A DNA stretch of 64,000 nucleotides from Escherichia coli (lineage in GTDB: Bacteria; Pseudomonadota; Gammaproteobacteria; Enterobacterales; Enterobacteriaceae): NCBI RefSeq assembly GCF_036507355.1, contig NZ_AP027877.1; one strand, written 5' to 3'. The notes beneath the pieces are model-generated. The model was not told the origin of the DNA, searched no databases, and worked only from the letters and a program-made list of their open reading frames with translations. Below are positions 748 through 22,882 of this stretch, one piece after another (positions within the stretch are counted from its first letter, which is position 1; the number at the start of each line of letters is the position of its first letter). Made by a program: the position numbers and the translations under genes.

Positions 748-758
748 GGGGTAACACC

Positions 759-2146: not shown

Positions 2147-2201
2147 GGTGATGCTGCCAACTTACTGATTTAGTGTATGATGGTGTTTTTGAGGTGCTCC
2201 A

Positions 2202-2899: not shown

Positions 2900-3069
2900 G
2901 TTGGAGTCACTACCGTAGAAGTTAAATCAGGAAAATCGAAAAAAATGAAACGTTCGGCATTGTCGTCGAGTTCCGCTTAATGACGTATCCATCCCGTTTT
3001 CCCCTTCACGTTTTCATGTTTGATAGAGGGCAAAATTGAGCCCTCTCAATCAAGATAATGAGTGAAAAC

Positions 3070-6000
3070 CTATACCGTCCAGCTGTTCGACACCACTTCA
3101 GCCTGCTTCAGTATCAGTTCAACTGCATAAGGTGTTTTATCTGGCGGATACTTGTACTTACGCAGCGTCTGACGCACCAGAATACGTAACCGCGCACGCA
3201 CGCTTTCTCGCACCTGCCAGTCTACGGTTGTGGACTGGCGCAATTTTAACGTGACTTCGATAGCCAGTTTCTTAAGGACGTCATCACCCAGCTCCCGTAC
3301 CGCACTTTCGTTTTCTGCCAGCGCATCGTAGAACGCGATTTCGTCCGGGTTTAGCCCCAGCGCTTCATCACGCGCCATCGCTTCCTGAAACTCTTTTGCC
3401 ATCTGGATCAGTTCTTCAATCACCTGCGCAGTTTCAATGGCGCGGTTATTGTATTTGAGAAGCACGGCTTTCAGGCGATCTGAGTATTTCTTCTCCTGCA
3501 CCACGTTGTTTTTGGTGCGGGCATGAATGCCGTCGTTCAGCAGTTTCTCCAGCAACTCGACTGCCAGATTACGCTGCGGCAATTCGCGCACTTCTTCCAG
3601 AAACTCGTCTGACAACAATCCAATATTCGGCTTATCCAGACCCGCCAGCGCAAACACATCATCCACGCCCGTCGCAATAATGGCGTTATCGAGGATTTTA
3701 CCGAGTAGCGTATTTTTCTCTGACTGACTGAATTTTTTGTCGGTTGTCGTCAGCTTGATAATCGCCACTTTCACCGCCGACAAAAACGCGATCTCTTTTT
3801 GCAAGGGTTTAGCTTCATCTAACGTACTGCACAGCGACCAGGCTTTGTTCATCGCCAGCACGACATCGAAAAAGCGCTTCTTACCGTCATCAAGGCCCAG
3901 CACATAATCTGCGGCTTTGAGTAAAAACCGTTGGGGCACCTCTGCAAAACCGGTGTAATCAAACCCGGCGGCGGTTGGTGTTTTGGCAAACATTCCATGA
4001 ATCACATCCAGCTTTTCAAGCAGGATGGAGAACGCTTCATGAGCATCGACTGTCGTCTGTCCTTTACCTTTTGAATCGGTATAAGTTTTCAGCGCCTGTT
4101 TCAGTTCATTGGCGATACCGATGTAATCCACCACTAAACCGCCCGGTTTATCTTTGAAGACGCGGTTGACGCGCGCAATGGCCTGCATCAGATTATGCCC
4201 GCGCATCGGTTTGTCGATATACATGGTATGACAACATGGCGCATCAAACCCGGTAAGCCACATATCGCGCACAATCACCAGTTTCAACGGGTCGTTGAGA
4301 TCTTTAAAGCGCGCTTCAAGGCGTTTTTTGGTTTGCTTATTGTAGATGTGCGGCTGAAGGAATTTATTATCGGAGGCTGAGCCGGTCATGATGATTTTGA
4401 TTTCACCTTTCTCGACGTCATCACTGTGCCATTCCGGGCGTAGAGCCACCAGCGCATCATACAGCTTCACGCAGATCTCACGGCTCATGGCAACAATCAT
4501 TGCTTTGCCATTCATTGTGGCGTTACGTGCCTCAAAATGCTGAACCAGATCGGCGGCCACCTCATTGATACGAGGTTCAGAACCAACCAGTTTTTCCAGA
4601 CGGCTCCAGTCACTTTTGGTTTTCTCTTTCTGATCGGTCTCTTCATCTTCGACCAGCTCATCCACCTGATTAGACAGCGTTTCCAGCTCTTCGTGGTTGA
4701 GGTCGAGTTTTGCCAGGCGCGATTCATAGTAGATAGGCACGGTTGCGCCATCTTCCACCGCATCCTGTATATCGTAGATAGAGACGTAATCACCAAACAC
4801 CGCGCGGGTGTCTTTATCTTCGGAAGAAACCGGTGTTCCGGTAAAGCCCATAAACGACGCATTGGGTAACGCATCGCGCATATGTTTGGCGTAACCGTAT
4901 TTATAAGCGCCAGTCTCCCGGTTCAGCGTGGCGCTAAGACCATACTGGCTGCGGTGCGCTTCATCGGAAATGACGACGATATTGCTGCGCAGGTTTAGCG
5001 CCGGGTGAGTCTGTTCGCCATCAAGCGGGGCAAATTTTTGTACGGTGGTAAAAATAATCCCGCCTGATTCACGGACATTGAGCATCTCGCGGAGCTGGTC
5101 GCGATCGTTTGCCTGTAACGGTTCCTGCTTAAGCAAATCCTGTGCCTGGCAGAAGGTGGCATACAGTTGGCCGTCGAGATCGTTACGGTCGGTCACCACC
5201 ACGATGGTCGGGTTGTTCATTTCCGCTTGTTGTAGCAGTTTTCCGGCGTAACAACACATCGAGATACTCTTACCGGAACCCTGCGTATGCCACACCACAC
5301 CGGCTTTTTTACTGCCTGGCGTGATGTTGCTGCGCAGCGGCAAGTGTTTACCGGTAGAGGCCACAATCGTCGCCGTCACCGCTTCACGTACTGCGTGGAA
5401 TTGGTGGTAAGCGGCAATCTTTTTAATCAGTCGTTTGCCGTCGCTTTCAAACAGGATGAAGTAACGAATGTAGTCGAGCAGCAGTTCGCGGTTAAAGAAC
5501 CCTTTTACTACCGTTTCAAGCTGCCATTCAAACAGCGGTTTGTCGTCTTCATTAGACAGCGTTTTCCACGGCAAGAAGCGCTCTTCGTTCGCGGTGAGAG
5601 AGCCAATACGGGCGTTGTAGCCATCGCTGACCACCAGCGCTTCGTTGCAGATGAACAGATCGCTGAGTTCGTTTTTATAGGTCTGCAACTGATTAAATGC
5701 CGCCCAGATATCGGCATTAGCATCAATCGGGCTTTTCAGCTCAATCACTACTACTGGCAATCCGTTGATATAGCAGATAACGTCCGGGCGACGTACCTGC
5801 TTCGTTCCCTGGATGGCCACCTGATTCACCACCGTAAAGTGGTTATTATTTGGGTGGTTAAAATCCATCAGTAGCGCTTTGTCGTGGATAACTTTGTCAT
5901 CCTGCTTGTACTGCACCGGCACGCCGTCGAGCAGCAGGTGATGGAAGGCTTTGTTACTGACGACCAGATCCGGGCTTTGCGCATGGGCGATACGCAGTAT

Positions 6001-6204
6001 CACCTCATCCAGCACGGCAACCGGGAGATGTGGGTTAATCTTTTGCAACTGCTCCAGTAGCACCGGGCGCAAAAACACATCGTGGAACGACGCACGCAGC
6101 GGATTGTTGCCATCTGGCGCAATATCCGGCCCGTGCAATACTTCCCAGCCCAGTTCAGCAAACCATTGCAGGCTTTGCTGTTCTAAATCGTCTTCGCTCA
6201 GCAT
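3070..6204 (-). CDS. hsdR: Type I restriction enzyme R subunit HsdR (1044 aa)
   Basis: Walker A ([11 protein letters not shown]), DEAH box ([11 protein letters not shown]) and overall helicase/translocase architecture. Last gene of the hsdM-hsdS-X-hsdR operon; its start overlaps the stop of the upstream gene. Confidence 0.85.
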
Positions 6205-7391
6205 CAGGTTTCCTCTGTCTCGGTTTCTTCCATTTCTTCGGGCACGTTTGAAATCTCTTTGAGCGCCATATTCAGTGGGGCAATAAAGGGATCTAACGCT
6301 TTTTCAAATGCCGTCAGGTTTACCAGTAGCCAGTCGATCATTTCAGGCCAGTTGGCTTCATCAAGGCTGATGGCCGGGCTGGCATAGGAAATTCGACACG
6401 ATTTTTTACCCGGCAGAGGTTCCCACTTAAGCGCATGGCCAAACGCGTTTTCAATTGCCTCTTTGCGTTCATGTAGCCAGTTAAAAGCAAAGGTATTGCT
6501 CTCTGCGGAAGCTTTGGCAATCCACAGCTCAACCCGAATCTCTTTTTTACTGAAAATCAGGTTATACGACACCGCGCTAATACCAGAGCCCGCACTGATC
6601 CAGTGATCGGTAGAGGGGCTGATATTGTTATATAAGTGGCAGGAGCTGGCTTTGAGGCGCTCCAGCATCTTTGTCCAGAAAGCTTTACGCATTAATTGGA
6701 CTGGCTTTACTCCGCCGCTGACGGATTGTTCTTCCGCCTCTTTTTGCGCCATACCGATCATGTAAGATTCTGCTTCCGGTGTGGGGATAACCTGACGGAT
6801 ATCAACGAATACATCGTCGTTGAACTTATAGGGTTTAACCTTAAAGCACTGTACCCGCAGACCAAATTGCATGAGCCACAGGGCAGTGTTGGTCACCTCT
6901 TTGCGAAAGTTGGCTGCGACCATGATGATTCGCTGTGTACGGCTCTGGTTGATTAAGGCTTCATCCAGCGTTTCATATTCGAGGAATTCAGCAAGCACCT
7001 CTGCCGCCGGGCGATTTTCCTCTGGGTCGTATTTATCCAGATAAAGCTGGAAGATCTGCAGAATTTGCTCTTTACGCAGGTTGGCGCAATACCCGGCATA
7101 TTTGAGCGCTTGCCAGACGACGTCGCGACCTGAATCATCGAGCTTATTCTCGATGATCACCAGATTGCCTTTTTTATCGATAGCCAGCAGGTCAAGGCGC
7201 TCTTTGGTGTCGTCAAAACCGGCGAACTCTTTCTGTATAATCAGTAGTTCATCGTCATTATCGCGAGTTAACGCTTGGGGATTCTGCGCCAGCCATTCCT
7301 GCAGATTGCCACGTTCGGTAAAACCAAGACTACTGAAAGAGACTTCCTGTAGGGAGTGTAAGCTGTTAGTCGGCGTATCAACTTTATACAT
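6204..7391 (-). CDS. PD-(D/E)xK (NucS/DUF91-like) nuclease-domain protein embedded between hsdS and hsdR (about 395 aa)
   Basis: Motif [21 protein letters not shown] resembles a restriction-endonuclease-fold D...ExK core. No Walker A, so not PrrC. Start and stop overlap hsdS and hsdR (translational coupling). Confidence 0.5.
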
Positions 7392-8769
7392 TTTCCACCT
7401 CACTGACTGCCTGTTCTGCTTCCTGCAGGGTAATTTCACCCGAGAGAAGTTTGGGGAGAAGGGTGTCGCGGAGTTGGGTTAGTGATTCAGTTTGTACACT
7501 GAGCGATTTAATCTCATTAAATAAATGTGTACATTTGGCATGAAATAACTCCAATACTTTAGCATCAGGCTGAGCGATTTTAATTCCTGAGAAAGTAGAC
7601 GTATTGACATTTAAAGTTGCACTACCTGCGCTACCTAAAATGTGAAGATGATCTTTCAATCCCAACATACAAAAATAAAGATAATAGAGTAAGGAACTCT
7701 TATGAGGTGTAACAGAATTTATTTGCTGATTGGTATGAGATGGTTCATTGGTGATAGAAACAACACCAATAGTAGCTATACAACTAACACAGATAGAATT
7801 TGCGGGTACAAGTTTTTTTAGTTGCGACTTTGAACCGGCTTCGCTTAAATATTCATTAGTTTTAAGCACAAAAAGTTGCCCATGCATATCTGGTATCTTT
7901 ATGAATGGAACATCACTACCGTAATACTCTGGTTCTTTTTTTGACGGAGTTTTGCCACAAGTAACCTTCCCCATCTCACTAATTGACGCCACCCCCCATC
8001 CTTTAGGAATCGCCCCTAACTCACTGTCCTGCATCGCTGCCGGAAACAGTTCTGCCGTGGCTTTTAACTCGGCATATTGCTCAGGGTGTTCACGCTCAAA
8101 AACCGCCAGCGCATCCGCATCTTTCCCAGAAATGGCGGTCATGGCGGCAAGTGTTGCGTCTGCCTGCGAACCGCCCGCATCCAGTACTGCCATTTTGGCT
8201 TTTACGGGGTCAAAATCAACAAACCAACTTTTGAACAGGGCTTGTGCCATTTGTTCGAGGGTTTGGTTGATGCGATTATTACTATCAATTTTTTTACTTA
8301 ACGTAAAAATTAGCTTTGTACATCTTTTTTGATATTTTAAAGAAGGAATCTTTATTTTGTAGCTCAGCATGGCCCCTTTATCACCTCGAGGCATTTTTGC
8401 GCCCTTGGATGTAAGATGGCTATAATTAATAAAATCATCACTGCTTAAAATCAAATGTAAATATTCACTTGTGAGTTTTTCATGTGTAGTCCTAAATACT
8501 AGCACATCAGGAGAAACACCTCCGTAAAATGTGGCAAACCATACTTTTTTAAAGTACGTTCGAATATTAGAAAATAAAGTATCACCTATTTCAAAAGAAT
8601 TAAATTTGTTGACATCAGGGATGCCTGATGAAATAGTTACACCCTGACGGTCAGGCAACATATTTTCCGTGGAAATATAATTAGTAACATCTATAATAGA
8701 TGCATCACATTTTTTTGTGACTATCTCTACAAAGTTACCTAACTCAGTTTCGATGAACTCAAAACTCAT
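7384..8769 (-). CDS. hsdS: Type I R-M specificity subunit HsdS (about 461 aa)
   Basis: Sits between hsdM and hsdR with size and position typical of HsdS; start overlaps the hsdM stop. The track ORF start at 8826 is rejected in favour of the ATG at 8769. Confidence 0.7.
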   Translation of the reverse strand: MSFEFIETELGNFVEIVTKKCDASIIDVTNYISTENMLPDRQGVTISSGIPDVNKFNSFEIGDTLFSNIRTYFKKVWFATFYGGVSPDVLVFRTTHEKLTSEYLHLILSSDDFINYSHLTSKGAKMPRGDKGAMLSYKIKIPSLKYQKRCTKLIFTLSKKIDSNNRINQTLEQMAQALFKSWFVDFDPVKAKMAVLDAGGSQADATLAAMTAISGKDADALAVFEREHPEQYAELKATAELFPAAMQDSELGAIPKGWGVASISEMGKVTCGKTPSKKEPEYYGSDVPFIKIPDMHGQLFVLKTNEYLSEAGSKSQLKKLVPANSICVSCIATIGVVSITNEPSHTNQQINSVTPHKSSLLYYLYFCMLGLKDHLHILGSAGSATLNVNTSTFSGIKIAQPDAKVLELFHAKCTHLFNEIKSLSVQTESLTQLRDTLLPKLLSGEITLQEAEQAVSEVENV

Positions 8770-10468
8770 AACCCAGCCCCCCCAGATTCGCCTTAATCTG
8801 CGCTTCCAACTTCGCGCTCTCTTCAAGCTGATCTTTAAGCTGCGCCGTCAGGCGCGCCATCTTCTCGGCAAACGGTTCATCATCTTCAGCTTGCTCGGCG
8901 GCACCAACGTAGCGCCCAGGGGTCAGCACAAAGTCGTTTTTCTGGATATCCTCCAGCGTTGCTGAGAAGCAGAATCCGGCTTCGTCTTCGTAGTCTTTAT
9001 CCGTCTGCCAGGCGTGGAAGGTATCGGCAATTCTGGCGATATCTTCGCGGGTAAAGTCGCGCAACACGCGATCTTTCATATAACCAATCTGGCGCGCGTC
9101 GATAAACAGCACTTCACCTTTACGGTGCGCTTTGCCGTTGCCACCGGATTTATCTTTGGTCAGGAACCAGATACAGGCTGGGATTTGGGTGTTGGTAAAC
9201 AGTTGCCCTGGCAGCGCCACCATACATTCCACCAGATCCGCTTCAATCAGGTTGCGGCGGATCTCGCCTTCATTGTTAGTGTTGGAACTCATCGAACCGT
9301 TCGCCAGCAGCAGCGCCATCGAACCTTTTGGCGCGAGGTGGTGGATCATGTGCTGCATCCACGCAAAGTTGGCGTTGCCCTGCGGCGGTGTGCCGTATTT
9401 CCAGCGCACGTCGTTTTCCAGCTTCGCGTTCCACCACTCCTTCATGTTGAACGGCGGGTTTGCCATCACGAAGTCAGCGCGCAGATCCGGGTGCTGGTCG
9501 TCTAGCAGGGTGTCGGCGTTTTTGGCACCAAAGTTAAAGTCGATACCGCGGATCGCCATGTTCATCGCCGCCAGCTTCCAGGTGGTCGGATTCGACTCCT
9601 GGCCGTAAACGGAAATATTGCGCTTCTGCTCAGCGGCGTTGTAATTCTTTTCGCCCGCGTGCTCTTCAATGAAACGGTCGCTGGAAACGAAGAACCCGCC
9701 GGAACCCATTGCCGGGTCATACACCCGCCCGTTGTACGGTTGCAGCATTTCGACAATCAGGGTCACGATGCTTTTTGGCGTGTAGTACTGACCTCCCTGT
9801 TTACCTTCCGCCAGCGCGAATTGCCCCAGGAAATATTCGTAAACGTGGCCGAGAATATCTTTGCTCTTTAAGCTGAGTTTCTCGCCGTTATATTCCGGGT
9901 TGCTGAAGTTTGCGTCAGAGAAGGTATTAATCAGCCCGGTCAGCACCTCGTTACTCAGTTGATACTGGCTGATGCGATTCAGAATACCTTTCAGTTTCGG
10001 GTTGGTTTTTTCGATTTCATCCAGCGCGTTATCCACCAGCCAGGAGACAGAGCGCAGCGTCACATCCTTGCCGGTGGTTTCATCCACCCACAGCACGGTG
10101 CCGGTCGGCAACATGGCTTTGTTTTTCAGCGTGTCCCAGCGCGCGGCTTTTGGCACCCAGAAGATGTTCTTTTCGGTGTAGTAATCTTCAACTTCCAGCT
10201 CTTCCTGGATAGCCTGAGCGTATTCTTCGTCGGAACCGTAATCATCGCGCGACATGGCGTAGATGTTGTCGGGATTACCGACATCGCGGAACAGGGTCGT
10301 CAGCTCCTGCTGACGCGCCTCGAAGGCATCAGAAACATACTTCAGGAAGATTAGCCCCAGCACCACATGCTTGTAGTTGGCGGCATCCATATTGGCGCGC
10401 AGTTTGTCGGCGGCCTTCCAGAATTTGTTATCCAGCTCGTTCAGAAATAGCTGTTCAGCGTTGTTCAT
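8759..10468 (-). CDS. hsdM: Type I R-M DNA methyltransferase subunit HsdM (about 569 aa)
   Basis: N6-adenine methyltransferase catalytic motif NPPF (FVMANPPFNMKEW) and an AdoMet-binding region (VYDPAMGSGGFF); first gene of the operon. Confidence 0.85.
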   Translation of the reverse strand: MNNAEQLFLNELDNKFWKAADKLRANMDAANYKHVVLGLIFLKYVSDAFEARQQELTTLFRDVGNPDNIYAMSRDDYGSDEEYAQAIQEELEVEDYYTEKNIFWVPKAARWDTLKNKAMLPTGTVLWVDETTGKDVTLRSVSWLVDNALDEIEKTNPKLKGILNRISQYQLSNEVLTGLINTFSDANFSNPEYNGEKLSLKSKDILGHVYEYFLGQFALAEGKQGGQYYTPKSIVTLIVEMLQPYNGRVYDPAMGSGGFFVSSDRFIEEHAGEKNYNAAEQKRNISVYGQESNPTTWKLAAMNMAIRGIDFNFGAKNADTLLDDQHPDLRADFVMANPPFNMKEWWNAKLENDVRWKYGTPPQGNANFAWMQHMIHHLAPKGSMALLLANGSMSSNTNNEGEIRRNLIEADLVECMVALPGQLFTNTQIPACIWFLTKDKSGGNGKAHRKGEVLFIDARQIGYMKDRVLRDFTREDIARIADTFHAWQTDKDYEDEAGFCFSATLEDIQKNDFVLTPGRYVGAAEQAEDDEPFAEKMARLTAQLKDQLEESAKLEAQIKANLGGLGYEF

Positions 10469-10800
10469 GTAAATCCTCGGGGTAGATCGCAGCGAAAGAG
10501 CAACCATGCCTTATCGCAAATTCAGTTTTGGAATGCAGTTCGCAAAATGATACCCGGTACACTTACGATTACAAATGCGCGGTATAAAGAAGTTTGCATT
10601 TGATCGGTGAATAATAGGAAACTCAGTCACTGTTTCGTCTGCAAAATCAGCCATTTCGCCTTCATACGTAGTTCTTCGGTTGAATAGTAAGGTCTATCAT
10701 GCTGCATCGAACGGTGATTTTGATGGATGTTGGAAGTGAGTAGCTGTACGTAATTTTTGATTAAAAGTAATCAAAATGTTGCCAATGGTTATGCTATCGT

Positions 10801-11724
10801 GTGTTTTTTGAATATATAACAGGTAAAACTATGTCCTGGCTTAATTCTGTCTTATTGGCGCTTACCTCGGTGCAACCTTATATGGTACCGGCAACCGTTA
10901 TCGGCCTCGTCAGTTTTGCATTCCTCTGTTTTATTTTCTTTTATTTTTTTAGAGCAGTTAAAATTATTAACGGCCTGAAAAAATATACTCAGTCAATTAA
11001 TGGCATCGAAAATAATGAGCCTGGTAATCAGCTTCAGCATCTGCAAAGTTTGTTTGTACAGCCTGAGTTAAAGCACGCCTGGAATGAATTCGAAGAATCG
11101 TTGCACTCACAATATGAACTGGAGGACGGGGAAGAGAAAATCGTCCGTATTAGGGCTACTGCACCGAGCGCCAGTTTCTTCTCGGAGCAACAACTGGTCG
11201 ATATTCCGCTGAACACCGAATTTTTCAAACACCTGCCCGGTATTCTGACCGGTGTGGGGATTATCGGTACCTTCTACGGTCTGATGATTGGTCTCAACCA
11301 CTTCGACCCCAGCACACCAGAGCAGGTCTCCAGCAGCGTCAATAATCTGCTTCGCGATGTGCTGTACGCCTTCCTCGGTTCAGCATTTGCGATTACGTTC
11401 TCTATCCTTATCACCTGGCTGGAGAAATTCTGTCTGGCGAAATGCTACAAATATCTGGAAAAATTCACCGCAGCTCTCGACGCCCTCTATGACAGCGGTG
11501 TTGGCGAGGAGTACCTTGCCTCACTGGTAAAATCCAGTAATGAAAGCGCGACCCAGGCACGCCATCTGAAAGAGAGCCTGGTTACCGATTTACGCGATAT
11601 GCTGCTGCATCTGGCCAACAGCCAGAAAGTGGAAAACGAGCGGCTAGCGACCACCCTCAGCACCACCTATCGCGAAACAGGACAACAGTTTGCCGAGCAA
11701 GTCAGCGGTGCGATTGAAAACTGA
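10801..11724 (+). CDS. MotA/TolQ/ExbB-family proton-channel (stator-like) membrane protein (about 297-307 aa)
   Basis: Three predicted TM helices with TolQ/ExbB-like spacing. TM2 carries the family signature (LPGILTGVGIIGTFYG, compare TolQ GLFGTVWG). The stop codon TGA is formed by the first three bases of IS629, so the 3' end is disrupted or altered by the IS. Confidence 0.55.
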   Translation: MFFEYITGKTMSWLNSVLLALTSVQPYMVPATVIGLVSFAFLCFIFFYFFRAVKIINGLKKYTQSINGIENNEPGNQLQHLQSLFVQPELKHAWNEFEESLHSQYELEDGEEKIVRIRATAPSASFFSEQQLVDIPLNTEFFKHLPGILTGVGIIGTFYGLMIGLNHFDPSTPEQVSSSVNNLLRDVLYAFLGSAFAITFSILITWLEKFCLAKCYKYLEKFTAALDALYDSGVGEEYLASLVKSSNESATQARHLKESLVTDLRDMLLHLANSQKVENERLATTLSTTYRETGQQFAEQVSGAIEN

Positions 11725-11775
11725 ACCGCCCCGGGAATCCTGGAGACTAAACTTCCTGAGAAAGAGGTAAACAGG

Positions 11776-12102
11776 ATGACTAAAAATACTCGTTTTTCCC
11801 CCGAAGTCCGTCAACGGGCAGTCCGTATGGTTCTGGAAAGTCAGAGCGAATATGACTCACAATGGGCGACAATTTGTTCCATTGCTCCAAAGATTGGCTG
11901 TACGCCGGAGACTCTGCGTGTCTGGGTTCGCCAGCATGAGCGGGATACCGGGGGCGGTGATGGAGGGCTCACCACCGCTGAACGTCAGCGTCTGAAAGAG
12001 CTGGAACGTGAAAATCGTGAACTGCGCCGCAGTAACGATATCCTTCGCCAGGCTTCCGCTTATTTTGCGAAGGCGGAGTTCGACCGCCTCTGGAAAAAAT
12101 GA
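11776..12102 (+). CDS. IS629 OrfA (helix-turn-helix transposase N-terminal protein)
   Basis: [23 protein letters not shown]...; IS3-family OrfA with a leucine zipper near the C-terminus. Confidence 0.85.
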
Positions 12103-12989
12103 TGCCACTGCTGGATAAGCTGCGTGAGCAGTACGGGGTCGGACCGCTATGCAGCGAACTGCATATTGCCCCGTCAACGTATTACCACTGTCAGCAACAG
12201 CGACATCATCCGGATAAACGCAGTGCCCGTGCGCAGCGCGATGACTGGCTGAAGAAAGAGATACAGCGCGTATACGATGAAAATCACAAGGTATACGGTG
12301 TGCGTAAAGTCTGGCGTCAGTTGTTACGGGAAGGTATCAGAGTGGCCAGATGCACTGTGGCACGTCTCATGGCGGTTATGGGACTTGCCGGTGTTCTCCG
12401 GGGTAAAAAGGTCCGTACGACCATCAGCCGGAAAGCCGTTGCCGCAGGCGACCGCGTAAACCGTCAGTTCGTGGCAGAACGACCTGACCAGCTGTGGGTG
12501 GCTGATTTTACTTACGCCAGCACATGGCGGGGCTTCGTCTATGTGGCGTTCATCATTGATGTGTTTGCCGGATACATCGTGGGGTGGCGGGTCTCATCGT
12601 CCATGGAAACGACATTCGTGCTGGATGCACTGGAGCAGGCGTTATGGGCCCGTCGACCGTCCGGCACGGTCCATCACAGTGATAAAGGTTCTCAGTATGT
12701 ATCGCTGGCCTACACACAGCGGCTTAAGGAAGCCGGATTACTGGCATCAACAGGAAGTACAGGCGACTCGTATGACAACGCGATGGCGGAGAGCATCAAT
12801 GGTCTTTACAAAGCGGAGGTAATACACCGTAAGAGCTGGAAAAACCGTGCAGAAGTGGAACTGGCCACACTCACGTGGGTGGACTGGTATAACAATCGAC
12901 GATTGCTGGAAAGGCTGGGCCATACTCCTCCGGCAGAAGCAGAAAAAGCTTATTATGCTTCCATCGGAAACGATGATCTGGCAGCCTGA
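12099..12989 (+). CDS. IS629 OrfB (DDE transposase; expressed by -1 frameshift with OrfA)
   Basis: IS3-family integrase/DDE core (WVADFTY... HSDKGSQY... DNAMAES); overlaps orfA in the -1 frame. Confidence 0.85.
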
Positions 12990-13153
12990 GTTCACAGATA
13001 AAACACTCTCCAGGAAACCCGGGGCGGTTCACACTATTATTTCTCCGGTTAGCCTACAACAACGTTTTTATCAGAAGCTCAACCAGCAGATAATAGAAAT
13101 GAAAAACCCATTGCAGTGAAATTATTTTTGACAACATACAGCAGGAGTAAAAA

Positions 13154-13999
13154 ATGTTACGTGGTTCAGAAAGAAAAGAAGCATTAGCCAGTCTCAAAAG
13201 TGCAACTAACCGTTATGAAGTACAGGCTAAAGACACCCAGGATGAGATCACTGCCCTCTTTCTGTTACGCCAGAAATGCAGTAAGGACCTGATTGCCCGT
13301 GGTGAAAATTTTGTTAATCGACTGGCGAATACACCGAAAGAGTTTGATAAATCCTGGAGCGAATTGAAAGCGGAAATCGCTGAATTTGATAACGTGGTGG
13401 AAAAACTGGAAGAAGAATACCGCGCATCACATATTGGTAAAGGAACGGCTGCTGCGGGGGTTGCCGTTGGGGCGGGGGTCGCCGCATTTGCCCCTACGGC
13501 TGCGCTGGCGGTCGCAACAACTTTTGGTACAGCATCCACGGGTACCGCTATTGCTACGTTAAGCGGAGCTGCCGCAACAAATGCAGCCCTGGCATGGCTC
13601 GGCGGCGGCGCACTGGCTGCGGGTGGCGGTGGCATGTCAGCAGGAAGCGCACTACTGGCTCTGGCGGGTCCAATAGGCTGGGGGATTGGTGCTGTAGGCA
13701 TCGCTGGCGGAACCTTACTAGCCCGTCGCAAAAACGGTAAAATCATTGATGAAGCACAACAGGAAGAGCGCCAGGTTCGCGCAAAAACCAGCGAACTTCG
13801 CGTGATGGAACGTGGTGCGCAAGAACTCAAGATGCTCACATCCGAGCACTATCATGGTACTGAAAGCATTATTGATGTGCTGGAAAAGGCTGCGCCTCAA
13901 GACTATTGCCAGTTTAATACCCATCAGAAAGATCAATTAGGGGCATTGATTAACCATATCAATGCATTATCAAAACTGATCAACAAGAAAATCCAGTAA
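13154..13999 (+). CDS. Hypothetical protein with central Gly/Ala-rich glycine-zipper membrane segment (281 aa)
   Basis: Helical N- and C-terminal regions flank a Gly/Ala-rich hydrophobic stretch of about 100 aa (GTAAAGVAVGAGVAAF ... GWGIGAVGIAGG). Its stop overlaps the next start (TAATG). Confidence 0.5.
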   Translation: MLRGSERKEALASLKSATNRYEVQAKDTQDEITALFLLRQKCSKDLIARGENFVNRLANTPKEFDKSWSELKAEIAEFDNVVEKLEEEYRASHIGKGTAAAGVAVGAGVAAFAPTAALAVATTFGTASTGTAIATLSGAAATNAALAWLGGGALAAGGGGMSAGSALLALAGPIGWGIGAVGIAGGTLLARRKNGKIIDEAQQEERQVRAKTSELRVMERGAQELKMLTSEHYHGTESIIDVLEKAAPQDYCQFNTHQKDQLGALINHINALSKLINKKIQ

Positions 14000-15444
14000 T
14001 GAGCATTAACCATAATACAGTTGGCGACCAGCTTATCGGCAGCGCGGTTAACGCCATTAATCAGACCCGCATTGATAATGAACTGTTAAAACTATCGCAG
14101 CAGGATCGTGCATTTGAGTTGGCTGGCGAACAAATGCAAAAGGTGCGTGATTTCATCGCGTCACCGGGTAACATCCTGGGCTCAATGAGCACCAAACACG
14201 GTGAAATTGCTGAGCAGGTAGAAGTTGGCGTGCGCAATGCTCGCCAGGCAATAGAAGAAAGGGTTCAGGATGCCTCTGATCTTAGCGCCACGTTTGACGG
14301 AGTGGGTCGAACCGCTCCGGCGGATTATATGATAGATGGCGTTGACGTGCAGTCAAAGTTTATCAACGGAGTTAATAATAACCTGAACCATGTCCTTCAG
14401 CACATGGAAACCTATCCCAATTTCACCCGGGGAGAATCCTTTTACCATATCCCCAAAGACTCCTGGCAAACGATTCAGGATGTTATTGATGGGAAGCCGG
14501 TGGAGGGCTTGAGCGAAAAAACAATACAGGCTATCAGGGATAAAGTTGCAGAAATTGAAAGTACAACGGGAAGATCCTTTAATGATGTCGTGCGTCCTGG
14601 AGTTTCTGATTACAAAGATGTTCAGTGGGGAAAAATTGACGAAACTCTTGATAAACATGATCAGGAATTAGCGGAACAGAACGAGGCAAAAAAAGCAGAA
14701 ATTATTGACGATCACCAACCCTCCCTAAGTGAAGGCATGCGTGCAACCGCAATGGGAGCCGCTTTCGGTGGAACCTTTGCTCTTGTAACAGGTATATATA
14801 GCAAATACCGTGACGGTAAAAATATATTTCGTGGAGATTTCAACAGACAGGACTGGCAGGATGTCGGCTTAGATACATTGAAAGGTGCCGCTATTGGCGG
14901 TGTATCCGCCGGAGCAATTTATACCCTGACCAATTATGCCTCTCTGGGAGCACCGTTCGCCAGCGCGCTGGTCACTGCCGCTAAAGGTGTAAGCAATCTT
15001 GCTCTCTCCTATCAGCGCGGTGAGATTAATGCTGATGAATTTACCGATCTTGGCCTTATCATCTGCGCGGAATCGGCCATCGTTGGCGCAATGTCTGTCG
15101 CAGGTCAGGCAATCATCCCTGTGCCTGTTTTGGGGGCATTGGTTGGTTCTATCTCAGGGAAGTTTATGGTTACCGTAGCTAAAAATCTGGACAGTAAAGC
15201 ACGCCAATTGCTGGCGAAAAAAATGGAGCAATTTACATGTCGCTTAAGTGAGATTGAGCAGAAAGCACTCAACCGAATTTTGAACGAGTTCGCGGCGCTG
15301 GGTGAGCTTACCGCAGCTGCATTTAGCGTGGAAAACAATCGCCGGTTGCTGGAAGCAAGCATCACGCTTGCCCAAGCCCACGGTGTTGAAGAGGCGAAGA
15401 TAATCAAAAATGCGGATGATCTTGACACATTTATGATGGCGTAG
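13999..15444 (+). CDS. Hypothetical protein with C-terminal glycine-zipper membrane segments (481 aa)
   Basis: Soluble N-terminal region of about 240 aa, then several Gly/Ala-rich hydrophobic segments (GAAFGGTFALVTG, GAAIGGVSAGAIYT, AIVGAMSVAGQAII). Translationally coupled to the upstream gene. Confidence 0.5.
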   Translation: MSINHNTVGDQLIGSAVNAINQTRIDNELLKLSQQDRAFELAGEQMQKVRDFIASPGNILGSMSTKHGEIAEQVEVGVRNARQAIEERVQDASDLSATFDGVGRTAPADYMIDGVDVQSKFINGVNNNLNHVLQHMETYPNFTRGESFYHIPKDSWQTIQDVIDGKPVEGLSEKTIQAIRDKVAEIESTTGRSFNDVVRPGVSDYKDVQWGKIDETLDKHDQELAEQNEAKKAEIIDDHQPSLSEGMRATAMGAAFGGTFALVTGIYSKYRDGKNIFRGDFNRQDWQDVGLDTLKGAAIGGVSAGAIYTLTNYASLGAPFASALVTAAKGVSNLALSYQRGEINADEFTDLGLIICAESAIVGAMSVAGQAIIPVPVLGALVGSISGKFMVTVAKNLDSKARQLLAKKMEQFTCRLSEIEQKALNRILNEFAALGELTAAAFSVENNRRLLEASITLAQAHGVEEAKIIKNADDLDTFMMA

Positions 15445-15480
15445 CACTCGAATAAAAATTACAGCAAGGATAAAACCACA

Positions 15481-18003
15481 ATGCTACAGATAATTGGTGC
15501 GTTAATTTTACTGGTAATCGGTTTTGTTATTATAAAAGCGTTGTTTAAGGCATCTCTCAATATTCTAGGTGTGATATTAGGATTGGGTGCATTGATTGTT
15601 GCAGGCCCACCTTTATTGGCGGGCTATATTGTAGAGCGCGTAACCTATGCGCTTCACTCACGTTGGCTGCTGGGTGTACCTCTTGCCATAGCAGGAATGG
15701 TGATTAGCTTTATGTGGGGACTTGATGGTAAACATATTGCCTACGAAGCCTATTCATTTGATTCAATGAAGTTTATTTTAACCGCTGCATTTGCCAGTGG
15801 CCTGCTTGCAGTACCTGTACAAACCAAGGCTATTCTACAAAACGGGCTTATACCAGCCGATATCAATGCCAAACTTAAAGAGTATTATTGCTGTTTTTAT
15901 ACGTCTTACTTTTTGATGGCCTGCTCTGCGGCTACACCGTTTATAGCCTGGCAATATAATATCTCATCTTCACTGATGTGGTGGACAGGATTGCTATACT
16001 GGATAGCAGCCTTACTGACACAGTTCTATGCGGCAAACCAAATTCAGGAACTCAAGAAGTTAACTAATGCCATCAATACAGGGTTAAATGAGCAAAAAGC
16101 GATCAATAACCAACTTTGGCTGACGGAACTAAAAGAAGGAAGTAACCTCTCAGCAGAATTCGTAGAGACTATCTATCTTAAGTTGGTCTCACAGCATATT
16201 TTTCAGGGCGATACTCGAGAGCAGGATCTGGCTGGTGAAAACTGGCTTTTAAATGATGCCTGGTATGAAAGAAAGATGGCTGAATTTAATGAGCAGTTAA
16301 ACAGTAAAATTGTACACTCATCAGATGAGCTAAGAAGCCTTTTTGGTAATAGGCTGAATTTACCCTCTGCTGCGAATGATGATCTCCTGAACCGTTATCT
16401 TGATGGTGGGAACTATTATTCTTTTTCGGATGGTCGAAAATTTGTCTCGTTTCACTATGTCGACGAGCTTTGTACCTGCACTTCATGCGGTTTGAGCGAG
16501 ATTAAAAACGCAAAACACCAGGACGGTTGTGGGAGCCAGGAATGGTATTGCTCTGATATTTGCCGGGAAACGGAAAAACTCTGCATTGAAATTCACAAGC
16601 GACCACAGGCTGAATTTATTTCCAGTGCAGCAACAAACGGTCTGATTCTCATGACGCTCCCGGAGGCCTGGAATACTAACGAAAAAATGTTTGCAGTGGG
16701 AGGACAAGGACATGGTTTTGCAGCCGAACGGGGAAATCATCTTACTGACAAAATCCAACTAAAAGATGCACATATTCTCGGTGATGATAATGCGAAAAAT
16801 GGTGCAGACAGGCTGGTTAACGGTTCAGAGATTCAGACCAAATACTGTGCAACCGCTGCACGTAGCGTCGGTGCTGGTTTTGACGGACAAAACGGTAATT
16901 ATCGCTATTATGACAGTAACGGAACCCCAATGCAGTTAGAGGTTCCGAAAGACCAGTATTCGAAAGCGCTTGAAACGATGGAGAACAAAATTCGCGATGG
17001 CAAAGTCCCCGGCGTTACCGATCCTGCAGAAGCCACAAAACTTGTACGTCAGGGACACCTGACTTATAGCCAGGCACAAAACATTACTAAGTTTGGCACG
17101 TTCGAATCTATCACTTACGACATTGCGGAAGGATCTATCATCAGCCTCGCAGCTGGAGGTATCAGCTTCGGTCTGACAGCTTCTATTTTCTACCTCAATA
17201 CCGGCGATCGTAAGGCTGCGTTGCAAACGGCAGCAATACAGGCAGGTAAAACATTTACCCGCACACTGACAGTTTATGTGACGGTACAGCAATTACACCG
17301 TATCAGTGCCGTTCAGGGGTTACTTAAAAATATTGATTTTGCCGCTGCCAGCCCGACAGTTCGTAATGCGCTTCAACAGGGAGTCGGAGCTAACAATCTC
17401 AACTCCCTTAACAAGATGATGCGTGGCACACTGGTTACCTCTTTCGCACTGGTCGCCGTGACCACTGGTCCGGATATGATCAAAATGGTGCGAGGTCGTA
17501 TTTCTGGGGCACAGTTTATAAAAAATCTGGCAGTTACTTCATCTGGTGTGGCTGGGGGGGCAATTGGTTCTATTGCTGGCGGAATGATGCTTAGTCCATT
17601 AGGTCCTTTCGGTGCTTTAGCAGGACGCGCAGCTGGTGGCTTGTTAGGCGGTATGATTGCCACAGCGATTTCCAAAAAAATAGCGGGTGCACTGGTTGAA
17701 GACGACCGAGTAAAAGTGCTGGCTCTCATCCAGGAACAGGTTACATGGCTTGCAACAAGTTTCATGCTTACAGCACACGAACTTGAAAACCTGAACGCGA
17801 ATCTGGCAACAGTAATTGACCAAAAAACCCTGGAGGTTATCTTCGCCGCAAAAGAGCAAGACCGAGCAACGGCCAATATGCTGATTAAACCACTTGTAGT
17901 AAGTGTGGTTAAGCAACGACCGGTCCTGAGCTATGAACAATCGCAAATCTGCGAAATGGTCGATCAGCTTGATACATCGGTTTCATTATCTGCTGTTGCA
18001 TAA
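15481..18003 (+). CDS. Hypothetical large membrane protein (840 aa): N-terminal multi-TM domain, Cys-rich zinc-ribbon-like segment, C-terminal glycine-zipper region
   Basis: About six N-terminal hydrophobic helices; Cys cluster CTCTSCGLSEIKNAKHQDGCGSQEWYCSDICRETEKLC; C-terminal Gly-rich segment SSGVAGGAIGSIAGGMMLSPLGPFGALAGRAAGGLLGG. Confidence 0.5.
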   Translation: MLQIIGALILLVIGFVIIKALFKASLNILGVILGLGALIVAGPPLLAGYIVERVTYALHSRWLLGVPLAIAGMVISFMWGLDGKHIAYEAYSFDSMKFILTAAFASGLLAVPVQTKAILQNGLIPADINAKLKEYYCCFYTSYFLMACSAATPFIAWQYNISSSLMWWTGLLYWIAALLTQFYAANQIQELKKLTNAINTGLNEQKAINNQLWLTELKEGSNLSAEFVETIYLKLVSQHIFQGDTREQDLAGENWLLNDAWYERKMAEFNEQLNSKIVHSSDELRSLFGNRLNLPSAANDDLLNRYLDGGNYYSFSDGRKFVSFHYVDELCTCTSCGLSEIKNAKHQDGCGSQEWYCSDICRETEKLCIEIHKRPQAEFISSAATNGLILMTLPEAWNTNEKMFAVGGQGHGFAAERGNHLTDKIQLKDAHILGDDNAKNGADRLVNGSEIQTKYCATAARSVGAGFDGQNGNYRYYDSNGTPMQLEVPKDQYSKALETMENKIRDGKVPGVTDPAEATKLVRQGHLTYSQAQNITKFGTFESITYDIAEGSIISLAAGGISFGLTASIFYLNTGDRKAALQTAAIQAGKTFTRTLTVYVTVQQLHRISAVQGLLKNIDFAAASPTVRNALQQGVGANNLNSLNKMMRGTLVTSFALVAVTTGPDMIKMVRGRISGAQFIKNLAVTSSGVAGGAIGSIAGGMMLSPLGPFGALAGRAAGGLLGGMIATAISKKIAGALVEDDRVKVLALIQEQVTWLATSFMLTAHELENLNANLATVIDQKTLEVIFAAKEQDRATANMLIKPLVVSVVKQRPVLSYEQSQICEMVDQLDTSVSLSAVA

Positions 18004-18166: not shown

Positions 18167-18186
18167 TAAGGGGGCATTTGCCCCCT
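18167..18186. terminator. Candidate bidirectional rho-independent terminator between the 840-aa gene and arsC
   Basis: Perfect 8-bp GC-rich stem AAGGGGGC/GCCCCCTT with a 4-nt loop, flanked by T-rich sequence on both strands. Confidence 0.5.
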
Positions 18187-18192
18187 TCATCA

Positions 18193-18618
18193 TTATTTCA
18201 GTCGTTTACCTGCATCATCAACGACTTTCTCGCCGTCTTCCTTAGCAAATGCGCCTTTTTGCGCATCCGGAAGAATATCCAGTACCACTTCGGAAGGACG
18301 GCACAGACGCGTTCCCAATGGTGTCGCCACAATCGGGCGATTAATCAGGATCGGATACTGAAGCATAAAATCGACTAACTGATCGTCAGTAAACTTATCT
18401 TCCGCAAGCCCCAGTTCTTCATAAGGTTCAACATTTTTACGCAATAGTGCCCGTACCGTTATCCCCATATCTGCGATGAGTTTGAGCACCTCATCGCGTG
18501 AAGGTGGATTTTCAAGGTAAAGAATAACGTTCGGTTCAGTACCGCTGTTGCGGATCATCTCCAGCGTATTACGCGACGTGCCGCAGGCTGGGTTGTGATA
18601 AATAGTGATGTTGCTCAT
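18193..18618 (-). CDS. arsC: Arsenate reductase ArsC (141 aa)
   Basis: MSNITIYHNPACGTSRNTLEMIR... with the catalytic Cys in the HNPACGTSR motif; recognised as enterobacterial ArsC. Confidence 0.85.
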   Translation of the reverse strand: MSNITIYHNPACGTSRNTLEMIRNSGTEPNVILYLENPPSRDEVLKLIADMGITVRALLRKNVEPYEELGLAEDKFTDDQLVDFMLQYPILINRPIVATPLGTRLCRPSEVVLDILPDAQKGAFAKEDGEKVVDDAGKRLK

Positions 18619-18840: not shown

Positions 18841-19072
18841 CGCCTCTTTGATAACGCATCATACTGCCAGCGGAATAACTCTCTTCGTCAATACGGCTCT
18901 CGCTGTACGCTTACCCATCTAGAGAGGTTTCAGGTGATTATCGATGTCAGAAGACTGAATGATTCAGTCGTTTACTTTGAGATAGATCAGAGGTTTTTCA
19001 CTACCTGTGTTCATCACATGGCTACGAATAGTAGAATCCAAGCATAAATTAACGCTTAGAAAAGTTGAGCTC

Positions 19073-22000
19073 ATGAGATTCCACCCTGAAGGGCCTTCCA
19101 TACCCGATATCCTCTTAGAACGCTGTGATACAGGTCGAGTTGTATTTCTCTGTGGCGCTGGGGTTTCATTACCTTCAGGGATGCCAAGCTTTGTAGAGCT
19201 TACCCAGCATGTAATTGAATACTTTGACCCACCACACGATTCAGAAATCATGGCAGCATTTCGCCCATGGCTTCACGACCAATCTTCAGCTAATGTCCCT
19301 CTCGACCAAATTTTCAACCTCCTACATCTGGAATATGGCAAGGATGAGGTGAATGCTTTGGTATCAAAGCGTCTGGGGACTGCAAGAACTGATATAGAGA
19401 TTGGACGTGAGCATGCCCTGATTAAAAGAATTTCCTCAAATCAGAGTGGTGTCCCACAGATTGTCACAACGAACTTTGACCGACTGTTCGAGGATAACCA
19501 AGCGCAAGATAATCTAACTCGATATGTGCCGCCAGCTTTCCCAAATCTGAATTTCGGTTCGACAATTGAGGGAATAACATATCTTCACGGCCGCCTGGTC
19601 GACGAAAATGCTGTAAACCATCCTTATGTGCTGAGCAGTGCAGACTTTGGAAGAGCATATCTTTCAGAAGGATGGGCGACCAATTTTATTAAGCTTCTTC
19701 TGGAACGATACATCGTTGTTTTGGTCGGTTATCAGGCAGAAGACCCACCAGTTAAATACCTCCTTCAGGGTCTCAATCATGATGGCCAGTATGATCGTTC
19801 CAGACTTTATGCATTTGATCGCGGCCTTGCCGAGGATATCGAAGCCAAATGGCGTGACAGAGGAGTTACAGCCATAGCCTATTCCGATCATCCAGCTCTT
19901 TGGAAGACTTTGGAAGCATGGGCTGAGCGAGTAGATGATCCACGTCGATGGCGAGCTTCTATTATCGCTAAAAGCCAGCAAGATCCGAAAGTTCTAGCAC
20001 CGTATGAACGTGGTCAACTTGCCCATATACTTCGCACTACACAAGGTGCGAAATTGTTCTCTGAAGCTGTTCCTCTTCCCCATCCAGAGTGGCTTTGTGT
20101 GATGGATGCAAATATTCGGTCAGCCAAACAGAAGAAAAGATACTACGAACTTGATGACAATGATGCAGAGACCTTCGATCCACAAGAAGCTTATGGGCTT
20201 GATGACGATCTGCAAGATATCGCTGATGATGAACGTAAACGTGGAGTGAGTAACGATAATCTCCTTGAATAGCGCGACGAAGATGATAACCCGTCAGATT
20301 ACCATCGCTTGGCTGGATGTTTGGAGACAATGCCGAAACGATTGAGCCATCTCATGGTCTGGTTCTGCAAATCTCTTGATAGCCCCGTGATGGCTTGGTG
20401 GGCTATCCGAAAAATCAGTATTCATCCTCTACTACTACAAAATATTGAACGCAATATTGAGCATTCAACATCAATCCACAAACGCGCTCGTCAACTGTGG
20501 GGCTTAATTCTTGAACATCATAAAGATCCCCGCAATCGTCGTTATGACGTCGATTGGTACGACTTAAAAGCTCGAATTACAAAACAAGGCTGGACAGCTG
20601 GTGTCTTACGAGAATTTCGTAGGGTAATGACACCCCGATTGGAAAAGAAGTTGCCGTATGGATTGGGTGAAGTCAGACCGCCAAGCGGCTCCTGGGAGGA
20701 AATTCAGTTCAGCGAATTTGGCCAATTTGAAGTTGTGTTCACCGAAAGACATGATGACGATTTAGACGTACCTGACAATGTATTACTACAAGTATTTAAT
20801 GCCTTAGAAGCGCAAATAATAATTGCCTCCGGAATGTTAGAGGATATTGATACGCACTACTTTCCAAGCCCAAGTTGTTATCCAGAACGTGCGGTTGAAG
20901 GAGAAGAACATTTCGCGAAAGGTGCGGAGGTATTAACTTGGTTTGTCCAACTTTTAGACCGAGTTGTTATGAAGTGGCCAGAATTGGCTAAGGCATAAGT
21001 AACAACTTGGCCAGTTAAGGAGCCATTTTTCTTCCGAAAGCTTAGACTTTATGCATTCAGTAAAAAAGGCGTCTTTGAGGCTGACCGTGTTGCCGAAGAG
21101 CTTTTGTCTTTGGATCAAAGTGGATTTTGGGACACAAATATTACCCGCGAACTTCTTTTTCTGCTCACTGATCGTTGGGAAGAATTCTCGCAAGAAAATC
21201 AGAATCGAATTATAGAGCATATATTAACCGGCCCGAACCATTTACTTTATTTGTCTGAGGAAGACATTCCAAAAGAAAGAGAGATATTAGCAGCTAGATA
21301 CGCTCGTTATCTCGAACTAAACGGCTGTAAAGTAACCACTATTCATCGTGACCAACTAACTGCGATGATTAAAAGAATTCCTGACTGGAATGATGGCTGG
21401 GCTACATCTGTTGTCATCAATTGGGGTTCACGGACAGGTTGGGTTCGTACAGACGAAAAGCCAGATATAATCTTAGATCTTCCAGCAAACGAAATAATCC
21501 CAAAAGTAAAAGAGATACTTAAACGAGAGGATGATAGCTTTACTAGTAGGCAACCCTTTGTCGGATTGATAAAAGAAAATCCGCGTAAAGCTTTGTCTGC
21601 ACTCGCTATTGCAGGGAGAGGCGGTGATTACCCTAAGGAATTTTGGTCGCCAATGATAAGTGAGTTACCTATAGATCTTAAACCAAGGGTGAGACGAGTA
21701 TTCCTGAACCGAATTGTGCGATTGCCAGTTACAGCTTTGGTCGAGTTACGACATACATTAAGTAACTGGCTTGAACAAAATTTAGCTGCGACTCTTGAAT
21801 TTGATGAGGATCTCGGGTGGGCAGTTTACGATCATGTCATAGCAGGCATACTGAGTGGTGGCGCCAGTGCAATACGGAGTAGTTTCGGAGAAGTTATCCG
21901 GAATGGAGAAGTTGTAATACAGTCTCGCCGCACGTTCAGTCATGCAATCAATGGTCCTGTCGGTAAATGTACTCAAGCGCTTTTTCAAGCAATGCCAAGT

Positions 22001-22882
22001 GAAGAGAAAAAAGCTGGTTCGCTTATTCCTTACTCTATTAAGTCTCGTATTGAACATCTTTTTACTGCACCAGGAGAAGGAGCGGACCACGCTATAGCTA
22101 TAACGTCTCGCAATCTAAATTGGCTAATGTTTGTTGATCCTGCATGGGTAAAGGAATGGCTTATACCCCTTTTGGATTTAAAACATCCTGCAGCAGAACC
22201 AGCATGGAATGGTTATCTTCAGTGCAATGCTATGCCTTCAATTGCAGTAGCTGAACTTATTAAACCAGCTTTTCTTAACCTTATCCCTTGGATCGAATCT
22301 CTTTCTTGGGAAAAAGATTATTCAGTTCGAGCTTCGCAATGGCTTGGCTTAATGAGAATGTTTCACCCTGATGAGCCCTCCAGTCCTTCCAGGAATGAAA
22401 TGCGCTCCATATTACGAGCATTATCTGACGAGGCTCGAAATCGTTTTATTTCCTGGTTAGGATTGGTCGGGCAGAAAAACGAGAGTGGCTGGGTTAAGTA
22501 TGTGATCCCATTAATCAGAGAGGACTGGCCCAAAGAACGCCAATATAGAACCACGAGCTCTGTAAAAGCATGGATTGGTTTACTTGACGATACTGGCGAT
22601 AAGTTTCCGGAGGTTTACGATTCAGTAAAAACATACTTAGTACCAATCGAGACAATTGATCATTTGTTCTACAGATTCACTCGGGAGCTCGGTGGTAAAG
22701 GAGCAATTGCGGCTATTTTTCCAGAAACCACGCTTGATTTAATGGACAAAATAACACCACTGATATTCACGCGTACATCAGGAGAGCTGCAGAAGATTCT
22801 TGAGCTAATTGAAGATACAGATACAAGTCTGATCAAGGATTCTCGGTACTTACGGCTTATTGCACTGGTTGAGAAAAATTAG
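19073..22882 (+). pseudogene. Large SIR2-domain protein gene (about 1,270 codons) interrupted by two in-frame stop codons
   Basis: N-terminal SIR2-like motifs (VVFLCGAGVSLPSGMPSF; IVTTNFDRLFE). Track ORFs 19007-20272, 20309-20998 and 21104-22882 all lie in the same frame, separated only by TAG at 20270-20272 and TAA at 20996-20998. Confidence 0.65.

Follow-up and report, generated by a model that had tools for sequence, protein, structure and literature searches.

In a 64,000-nucleotide stretch of Escherichia coli contig NZ_AP027877.1 (hereafter the window), a gene for a proton-channel-like membrane protein is followed, across a copy of the insertion sequence (IS) IS629, by three genes for membrane proteins with Gly/Ala-rich segments, here called A, B and C. 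The first gene is what is left of a dead type I Zorya system, namely codons 1-297 of zorA1, and has no relationship to the genes A, B and C downstream of it. These genes are cargo of a mobile defence island with a translationally coupled A-B core, which corresponds to the phage defence candidate (PDC) system PDC-M09, while C belongs to the YeeR family. The reading that we favour, with a probability of about one half, is that an IS629 event joined the dead Zorya system to this defence-island cargo, and that the cargo would act in defence at the level of the membrane.

The four open reading frames (ORFs) and the IS element described in a first-pass annotation of the window were all recovered where it had placed them, with the lengths, the TAATG overlap of the gene A stop and the gene B start, and the hydrophobic Gly/Ala-rich segments that it had reported. 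The uncharged segments of this type cover residues 97-190 of A, residues 249-268, 296-328 and 371-387 of B, and residues 551-572 and 683-715 of C. Since each of the genes has hundreds to thousands of homologues, they are genuine genes and not chance ORFs.

The Zorya remnant and the IS629-adjacent deletion

The 307-codon ORF, which contains GILTGVGIIGTFYGLMIGL and three hydrophobic segments, had been assigned to the MotA/ExbB/TolQ family and likened to Zorya, and both suggestions proved correct in that PADLOC and NCBIfam identified the product as ZorA1. The true start of the fragment is M11, which matches the ZorA1 start in E. coli ET826. The stump matched positions 1-295 of 727 in the PADLOC profile for ZorA1 (E 6e-162) and positions 1-297 of 729 in NCBIfam NF041794 (E 2e-176), in the latter case with 588 bits as compared to a curated cutoff of 750. 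It is 100% identical to residues 1-297 of ZorA1 from ET826, with no match past residue 297. When the ET826 Zor proteins were used as tblastn queries against the window, these residues at 10831-11721 gave the single match, and there was none to ZorB1, ZorC, ZorD or the ZorA C-terminus. Nor did any protein downstream of the stump match a Zor profile in PADLOC. Thus, neither the full-length ZorA1 nor the downstream ZorB1, ZorC and ZorD that make up a type I Zorya system are present in the window.

The IS629 element is bounded by the inverted repeats TGAACCGCCCCGGG...CCCGGGGCGGTTCA, and the first three bases of its left end form the TGA stop codon of the 307-codon ORF. The flanks (gaaaac on the left, cactat on the right) show no 3-bp target duplication. 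Positions 1-11721 of the window are 100% identical to ET826, in which the order is hsdRMS with an embedded DUF4268/PDC-S11 gene, zorA1-zorB1-zorC-zorD, the same IS629 (there annotated as an IS3 family transposase) and the same three genes. The right IS629 junction is the same in the two sequences, whereas at the left junction the window lacks positions 4831-12005 of the ET826 locus. The missing 7,175 bp contain the rest of zorA1 along with zorB1, zorC and zorD. An IS629-adjacent deletion has thus destroyed the Zorya system, and the apparent link between the stator gene and the genes downstream of it is an artefact of the IS event.

We also compared the locus with relatives lacking the IS element. 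E. coli strains of this kind carry the three downstream genes in a thrW island behind a gene for a WYL-domain regulator, with no Zorya system nearby, and the homology between the window and these loci begins exactly at the IS629 end (query position 2530, window position 13029). The regulator gene, of which a short 3' remnant is left in the window, is intact in one such locus (L002, 11213-12091), where it encodes 292 amino acids, is placed 34 nt upstream of gene A and is assigned to the WYL family by PADLOC (E 6e-20). Because the window has lost both this regulator and the native promoter region, expression of the downstream genes may be altered. Downstream of zorD in EA7, a Zorya locus that lacks the IS, there are unrelated genes. 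A ZorA-like ORF occurred within 10 kb of A-B in 3 out of 80 diverse loci (sampled by a scan with the B profile, one genome per species) and was adjacent in none. The caution in the first-pass annotation that IS629 left the native linkage uncertain was therefore justified. Its proposal of a stator-like unit tied to unrelated membrane effectors fails, since 297 of 729 residues remain, the partners are deleted and zorA is not paired with the three genes in the IS-free loci, the last of these being an outcome that the annotation itself had named as refuting.

The A-B core and its mobile islands

Gene A matched residues 1-280 of 282 in PADLOC profile PDLC04407 (E 2e-120) and gene B residues 2-479 of 480 in PDLC04409 (E 3e-214), and the two genes are adjacent, co-oriented and in the order expected for PDC-M09. 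This system is a PDC with a two-gene definition in PADLOC-DB v2 (Payne et al. 2024, bioRxiv 10.1101/2024.01.29.577857), and the 145 PDCs were put forward on the grounds that some of their copies are embedded in restriction-modification (R-M), BREX or DISARM systems (bioRxiv 10.1101/2024.01.29.577857).

The 80 sampled loci span Proteobacteria, Cyanobacteria, Firmicutes, Bacteroidota, Gemmatimonadota, Acidobacteria, Chloroflexi and others. An A homologue was located immediately upstream of B in 78 of them. The stop and start codons of the two genes overlapped in 42 of these 78 pairs, in the form of TAATG or TGATG in 17 and as ATGA-type overlaps of 4 nt in 22, and a further 26 pairs were separated by 0-30 nt. 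The two genes were also found as fusions, with an RHH (ribbon-helix-helix)-like N-terminus followed by A and B in P0449, and an A-like part joined to B in P0491. No third universally conserved neighbour was found in the 80 loci. The lineage-specific neighbours were WYL regulators (upstream of A-B in about 11 loci), a gene with a helix-turn-helix (HTH) and a dynamin-like domain, JukA and a TerB/DjlA-like small protein, with JukA or ZorA being only occasional. Based on the universal linkage, the overlaps and the fusions of A and B, and on the patchy occurrence of C, we conclude that the unit is A plus B and that C is a separable add-on. The three downstream genes, described as coupled in the first-pass annotation, do not form an invariant trio, and only A and B are universally linked.

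In the window, gene C starts 36 nt past the gene B stop codon with AAGGA within the gap. No terminator-like site comparable to the hairpin downstream of C was detected between A, B and C, and this hairpin is likely the end of an A-B-C transcript.

The defence island spans about 2.9-29.6 kb of the window. Besides the Zorya stub and A-B-C, it contains a type I R-M system with PDC-S11, Olokun (OloA/OloB), a Dsr1 pseudogene and an integrase. In Aeromonas, A-B is carried in an int-AlpA-YfjJ island. In Vibrio parahaemolyticus it is located in a variable region of a conjugative element, in the traG-traD interval, and in one case beside Abi_2 and Gabija. Gene B was identified on 65 plasmids and in 1 of 50,697 phage records. 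This context points to A-B-C as mobile-element defence cargo, by association and not as proof.

An origin from a known prophage lysis or conjugation module, named in the first-pass annotation as one of the findings that would overturn its proposal, was examined and rejected. Genes B and C had no matches in PHROGs, gene A weakly matched tape-measure hydrophobic segments only, and neither a lysis function nor any other phage function was among the hits. B is present in the single phage record mentioned, and the Vibrio copy is located in a variable cargo slot.

Table 1. Features of the locus and neighbouring genes, in window coordinates.
Feature	Position	Strand	Remarks
DUF4268 gene (PDC-S11)	6204-7439	-	411 amino acids; between hsdR and hsdS
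307-codon ORF as listed	10801-11724	+	10 extra upstream codons and IS-supplied stop
5' fragment of zorA1 (type I Zorya)	10831-11721	+	codons 1-297 of 729
IS629 (IS3 family)	11722-13031	+	1310 bp; terminal inverted repeats
IS629 orfA	11776-12102	+	programmed frameshift with orfB
IS629 orfB	12099-12989	+	programmed frameshift with orfA
3' remnant of WYL-domain regulator gene	13032-13119	+	last 29 codons
Gene A (PDC-M09A)	13154-13999	+	281 amino acids; PADLOC PDLC04407
Gene B (PDC-M09B)	13999-15444	+	481 amino acids; PADLOC PDLC04409
Gene C (YeeR family)	15481-18003	+	840 amino acids; homologues with PF27347
Terminator-like G+C-rich hairpin	18168-18187	both	between convergent gene C and arsC
arsC	18193-18618	-	
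Dsr1 (SIR2) gene	19007-22882	+	broken into three ORFs
Conserved ORF	23041-23769		242 amino acids
Olokun genes	23853-27843	-	two overlapping genes
Island integrase	28247-29614		

Among the neighbouring genes (Table 1), the DUF4268 gene matched PDC-S11 in PADLOC with E 3.5e-173 and is a textbook "embedded" candidate defence gene. The arsC gene is placed among the defence genes; an arsB fragment is annotated in the loci of relatives (L001-L003), and together they are probably the remnant of an ars operon. The first break in the Dsr1 gene is a TGG-to-TAG nonsense change at about position 20270 relative to the intact gene of 1291 codons in E. coli PSJ-29, and Dsr1 of ET826 has the later break only. 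The Olokun genes were recognized with E 5.5e-58 for OloB and E 7.5e-77 for OloA, and the conserved 242-residue ORF is directly downstream of them. The integrase gene borders directly on ycgV and dhaR, which are core genes, and no tRNA gene was detected across the window. IS-free E. coli carry this island at tRNA-Thr/proA, so that either the integration site is different or a rearrangement has taken place. Another setting of the defence-island type was seen in Paraburkholderia (L046, 11706-12542 and 14351-16648), where A-B is followed by a homologue of JukA (E 9e-52) and by a ZorA-like gene. A similar gene for a 278-residue protein with a zinc ribbon and a glycine zipper recurs in five loci.

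Domain anatomy of A, B and C

No significant Pfam-A domain was identified in A, B or C with a local copy of the database that did not include PF27347. Searches of the PDB with single sequences and with profiles of A, B, C, the B N-terminal domain and the conserved C domain gave nothing below E 0.02.

The AlphaFold2 model of A contains four long helices (residues 4-56, 62-92, 187-246 and 256-276) with a predicted local distance difference test score (pLDDT) of 70-93. The insert at residues 93-190 is Gly/Ala-rich, uncharged and modelled with low confidence. This glycine-zipper segment is more conserved than the soluble parts of the protein, with residues 106-176 being nearly all invariant across 38 homologues that are about 50-55% identical overall.

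In five alphaproteobacterial loci, a gene coding for a 728-residue protein with an HTH domain and a dynamin-like GTPase domain is located directly upstream of A-B on the same strand. The same arrangement is in part present in one poribacterial locus. On the Lactococcus lactis plasmid pSD96_06, a homologue of the HTH-dynamin gene directly precedes A-B, and a second dynamin gene is located nearby on the opposite strand. In the HTH-dynamin family, GxxxxGKS is located at residue 126 and DLPG at 240, and the gene of the A-B loci matched LeoBC in PADLOC (E 1e-9). Members of the HTH (XRE)-dynamin family with a C-terminal hydrophobic hairpin were observed at positions 1677-3863 of L013 and at 2603-4630 and 8073-10259 of L097.

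Using hhalign, A was aligned to residues 421-711 of the HTH-dynamin family with a probability of 95% and E 4e-8, as compared to E 1.4e-3 for a reversed-sequence control. This part of the dynamin comprises the stalk helices, the hydrophobic paddle or transmembrane (TM) hairpin at residues 552-639 and the C-terminal helix, and the signal is centred on the hydrophobic core (ALAGPIGWGIG versus ALGGPI.LVIG). A also matched the LeoBC hidden Markov model of PADLOC with E 3e-5. Judged by these alignments, it is possible that the core of A resembles the membrane paddle of the LeoBC-like dynamin family, and the HTH-dynamin gene and A-B may constitute a three-gene, Eleos-like variant. The insert of about 95 residues in A far exceeds the typical length of a dynamin paddle. 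None of A, B and C contains a dynamin-type GTPase domain, with a P-loop and DxxG, and a P-loop is missing from A and B. No significant similarity to the dynamin family was detected for B and C.

Protein B consists of a conserved, soluble N-terminal domain (residues 30-240, approximately), membrane helices of the glycine-zipper type (about 245-400) and a helical C-terminal part. The N-terminal domain was modelled by AlphaFold2 with a pLDDT of about 90 as helices and a small sheet (residues 30-240), and it contains the invariant polar residues K66, H67, E69, E72, R104, D109, Q118, K120 and H135, a set reminiscent of an enzyme or of a ligand-binding site. For the N-terminal domains of B and C, membership of the PD-(D/E)xK nucleases, with a restriction-endonuclease-like alpha/beta core and an E...D...(D/E/Q)xK motif, was considered as a possibility. 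The membrane helices include the conserved, membrane-embedded C356 and E358. A search of 1.84 billion representatives with a profile of the N-terminal domain gave 391 clusters (50% identity), and nearly all of the best 150 were B-type proteins. The C-terminal part of A and the N-terminal domain of B share the motifs K(N/H)G.IAE, TAP.DY and L..L..H (E 1.4e-4). Among unusual B variants, lipoprotein-type signal peptides were noted in P0485 and P0504, in one of which the B domain is preceded by repeated PASTA-like modules, and P0456 is 1410 residues long with about nine tandem repeats inserted in the N-terminal domain. No signal peptides were found in A and B of the window.

Protein C contains about five N-terminal TM helices, a zinc-ribbon-like Cys cluster (residues 333-368), a B-like domain (about 402-774) and a glycine zipper at 683-715. 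The residues C333, C336, C357, C361 and C368 are invariant in 40 homologues, and the conserved domain reads GGQGHGFAAE...DNAKNGADRLV.G..IQTKY...EVPKDQY. The homologues are named "inner membrane protein YeeR", and in the precomputed annotation the YeeR_C domain (PF27347) is assigned to a 99%-identical representative (P0121) and to nearly all of the 120 listed homologues, those without it being four truncated E. coli proteins. A conserved AxIQAGKTF at residues 583-591 (about 17227-17253) fits a loose P-loop pattern in a hydrophobic setting with no other features of nucleoside triphosphatases, and the match is fortuitous.

The PADLOC profiles for M09B matched C with E 6e-5 and 6e-4. Using hhalign, the N-terminal domains of B and C were aligned with E 1.7e-4, and the two proteins were collinear over residues 27-431 of B and 402-774 of C (E 7e-4). 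These matches suggest that B and C are probably distant relatives. A relationship between gene A and the N-terminal half of C was considered and rejected, as there was a weak glycine-zipper match only (E 0.01).

Proposed membrane-level defence, rival readings and known relatives

In the mechanism that we propose, A and B would assemble in the inner membrane via their small-residue helices, and the N-terminal domain of B would sense or process an infection cue, serving as the trigger or the catalytic part. The A-B complex would then alter the integrity of the membrane. Regulated membrane effectors are common in defence systems, and for this reason we rank permeabilisation and abortive infection as the most likely outcome. 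Membrane stabilisation, as in bacterial dynamins, would be a less likely one. Protein C is probably an independent single-chain version.

Several observations weigh against this reading. PDC-M09 is a bioinformatic candidate, one of 145 PDCs, and we found no paper mentioning it in the literature, nor any on glycine-zipper defence pairs. The PDB contains no match, in fold or in sequence, to the N-terminal domain of B, and it is thus from conservation alone that this domain would be called a sensor or an enzyme. The lipoprotein signals in P0485 and P0504 fit poorly with a cytoplasmic location of this domain. In the models of A and B, the pLDDT falls below 50 in the hydrophobic parts. The similarity between A and the dynamins resides in about 36-60 hydrophobic residues, with the flanking helices alone yielding E 0.24-0.35, and the majority of A-B loci have no dynamin gene. 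The homology between B and C is weak, with probabilities of 26-50%. Finally, whether the pair would disrupt the membrane or protect it is purely our inference.

A broader version, which we regard as doubtful, would unite PDC-M09A/B and the YeeR family in one previously unrecognised superfamily of membrane immune effectors, in which A is a GTPase-less derivative of a dynamin paddle and B and YeeR are novel fusions of a sensor or enzyme to a glycine zipper. If true, this would provide the first functional lead for yeeR in E. coli.

It seems unlikely that A-B is instead a GTPase-independent dynamin offshoot of the Eleos or DynA type that stabilises or reseals the inner membrane, thereby delaying lysis or blocking genome entry with no killing of the cell. 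The paddle-like motif in common with the adjacent dynamin family (E 4e-8), the match to LeoBC and the repeated occurrence beside HTH-dynamin genes, seen in two distant lineages, are all consistent with this scenario, as is the finding that membrane binding by the paddle of Bacillus subtilis DynA is needed for phage defence via delayed lysis (PMC12998192). However, the similarity is restricted to the hydrophobic segment of A and does not extend to B and C, no GTPase is present in A, B or C, and most loci, including the window, have no dynamin gene.

We consider it quite unlikely that A-B(-C) is mobile cargo with no role in defence, such as an addiction or toxin-like membrane module, an envelope stress system or a bacteriocin-like competition factor. 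The pair is always located on islands, integrative and conjugative elements or plasmids, but its neighbours are repeatedly defence systems and WYL regulators. The RHH-like N-terminus of one fusion is reminiscent of antitoxins, the Gly/Ala-rich segment of A weakly resembles tape-measure hydrophobic segments and some B variants have lipoprotein signal peptides, whereas A and B of the window have none and no conserved pattern of immunity or export genes was seen. Elsewhere in E. coli, yeeR is part of the flu-yeeR-irmA adhesin operon of CP4-44-like islands, and the K-12 copy is truncated (PMC6480617).

An obligatory three-component system in Enterobacterales, with C as an essential subunit, is very unlikely. 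C follows B in Enterobacterales only, and the same trio is present in E. coli, an Enterobacter isolate (L004) and an Enterobacter metagenome-assembled genome (L005). The genes are co-oriented with a gap of 36 nt and no internal terminator, and C and B have a domain in common. Yet, C is truncated or missing while A-B is intact in Serratia (L006), E. soli (L007), Yersinia (L008), Klebsiella (L009) and Klebsiella plasmids. Furthermore, in Pseudomonas and Methylomonas the full-length homologues of C occur as single genes with toxin-antitoxin and TIR genes around them, and the PADLOC definition consists of two genes. Hardly credible at all is a new Zorya-like system in which a functional stator would drive or gate the three glycine-zipper proteins, for while the gene is truly of the ZorA family and located 1.4 kb upstream on the same strand in a defence island, it encodes 297 of 729 residues with an IS-derived stop, ET826 keeps the ancestral full operon from which the window has lost 7,175 bp, and IS-free loci never pair zorA with A-B-C.

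The locus is thus no new stator-effector system and represents a decayed Zorya system placed beside other cargo via IS629. It serves as a warning that IS-adjacent deletions can yield misleading gene neighbourhoods in defence islands. Zorya, the PDC-M09 candidate and the YeeR family were already catalogued, and the leads that this analysis adds are the paddle-like core of A, the fusion proteins and the probable kinship of YeeR with B, along with a B N-terminal domain that lacks a PDB counterpart. A and B occur together very widely (at least seven phyla) and are tightly coupled and uncharacterised, and the bacterial dynamins, which are possible kin of A, are themselves poorly understood defence proteins. 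If a role in defence is confirmed, A-B would be a tractable two-protein model of membrane-level immunity and would also hint at what the orphan gene yeeR of K-12 does.

In comparison with known systems, the stump is the MotA-like membrane part of ZorA1 beside the same hsd operon as in intact type I Zorya loci; the window lacks ZorA residues 298-729, ZorB, ZorC and ZorD, and hence contains a remnant and not a system. The long helical bundle of A with its hydrophobic head is similar to the alpha-pore-forming toxins ClyA, XaxA and MakA, but the matches were weak (XaxA E 1e-4, MakA E 0.17) and membership in this family was rejected. With the bacterial dynamin-like proteins (Eleos LeoBC, DynA and the Nostoc protein BDLP), A has in common the succession of helices, hydrophobic hairpin and helix that forms the dynamin C-terminus, and with the HTH-dynamin family the motif ALxGPIxWxIG of the paddle or TM region; it differs in having no GTPase, and the sequence similarity does not go beyond the hydrophobic segment. 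Over the C-terminal 45-62% of its length, C is 61-74% identical to YeeR-type proteins of E. coli. It differs from YeeR of the CP4-44 prophage in being a long form of 840 residues with another N-terminal half, placed behind PDC-M09B and not behind flu (Ag43). While gene C is outside the definition of PDC-M09, A and B of the window match M09A and M09B end to end and in the same order.

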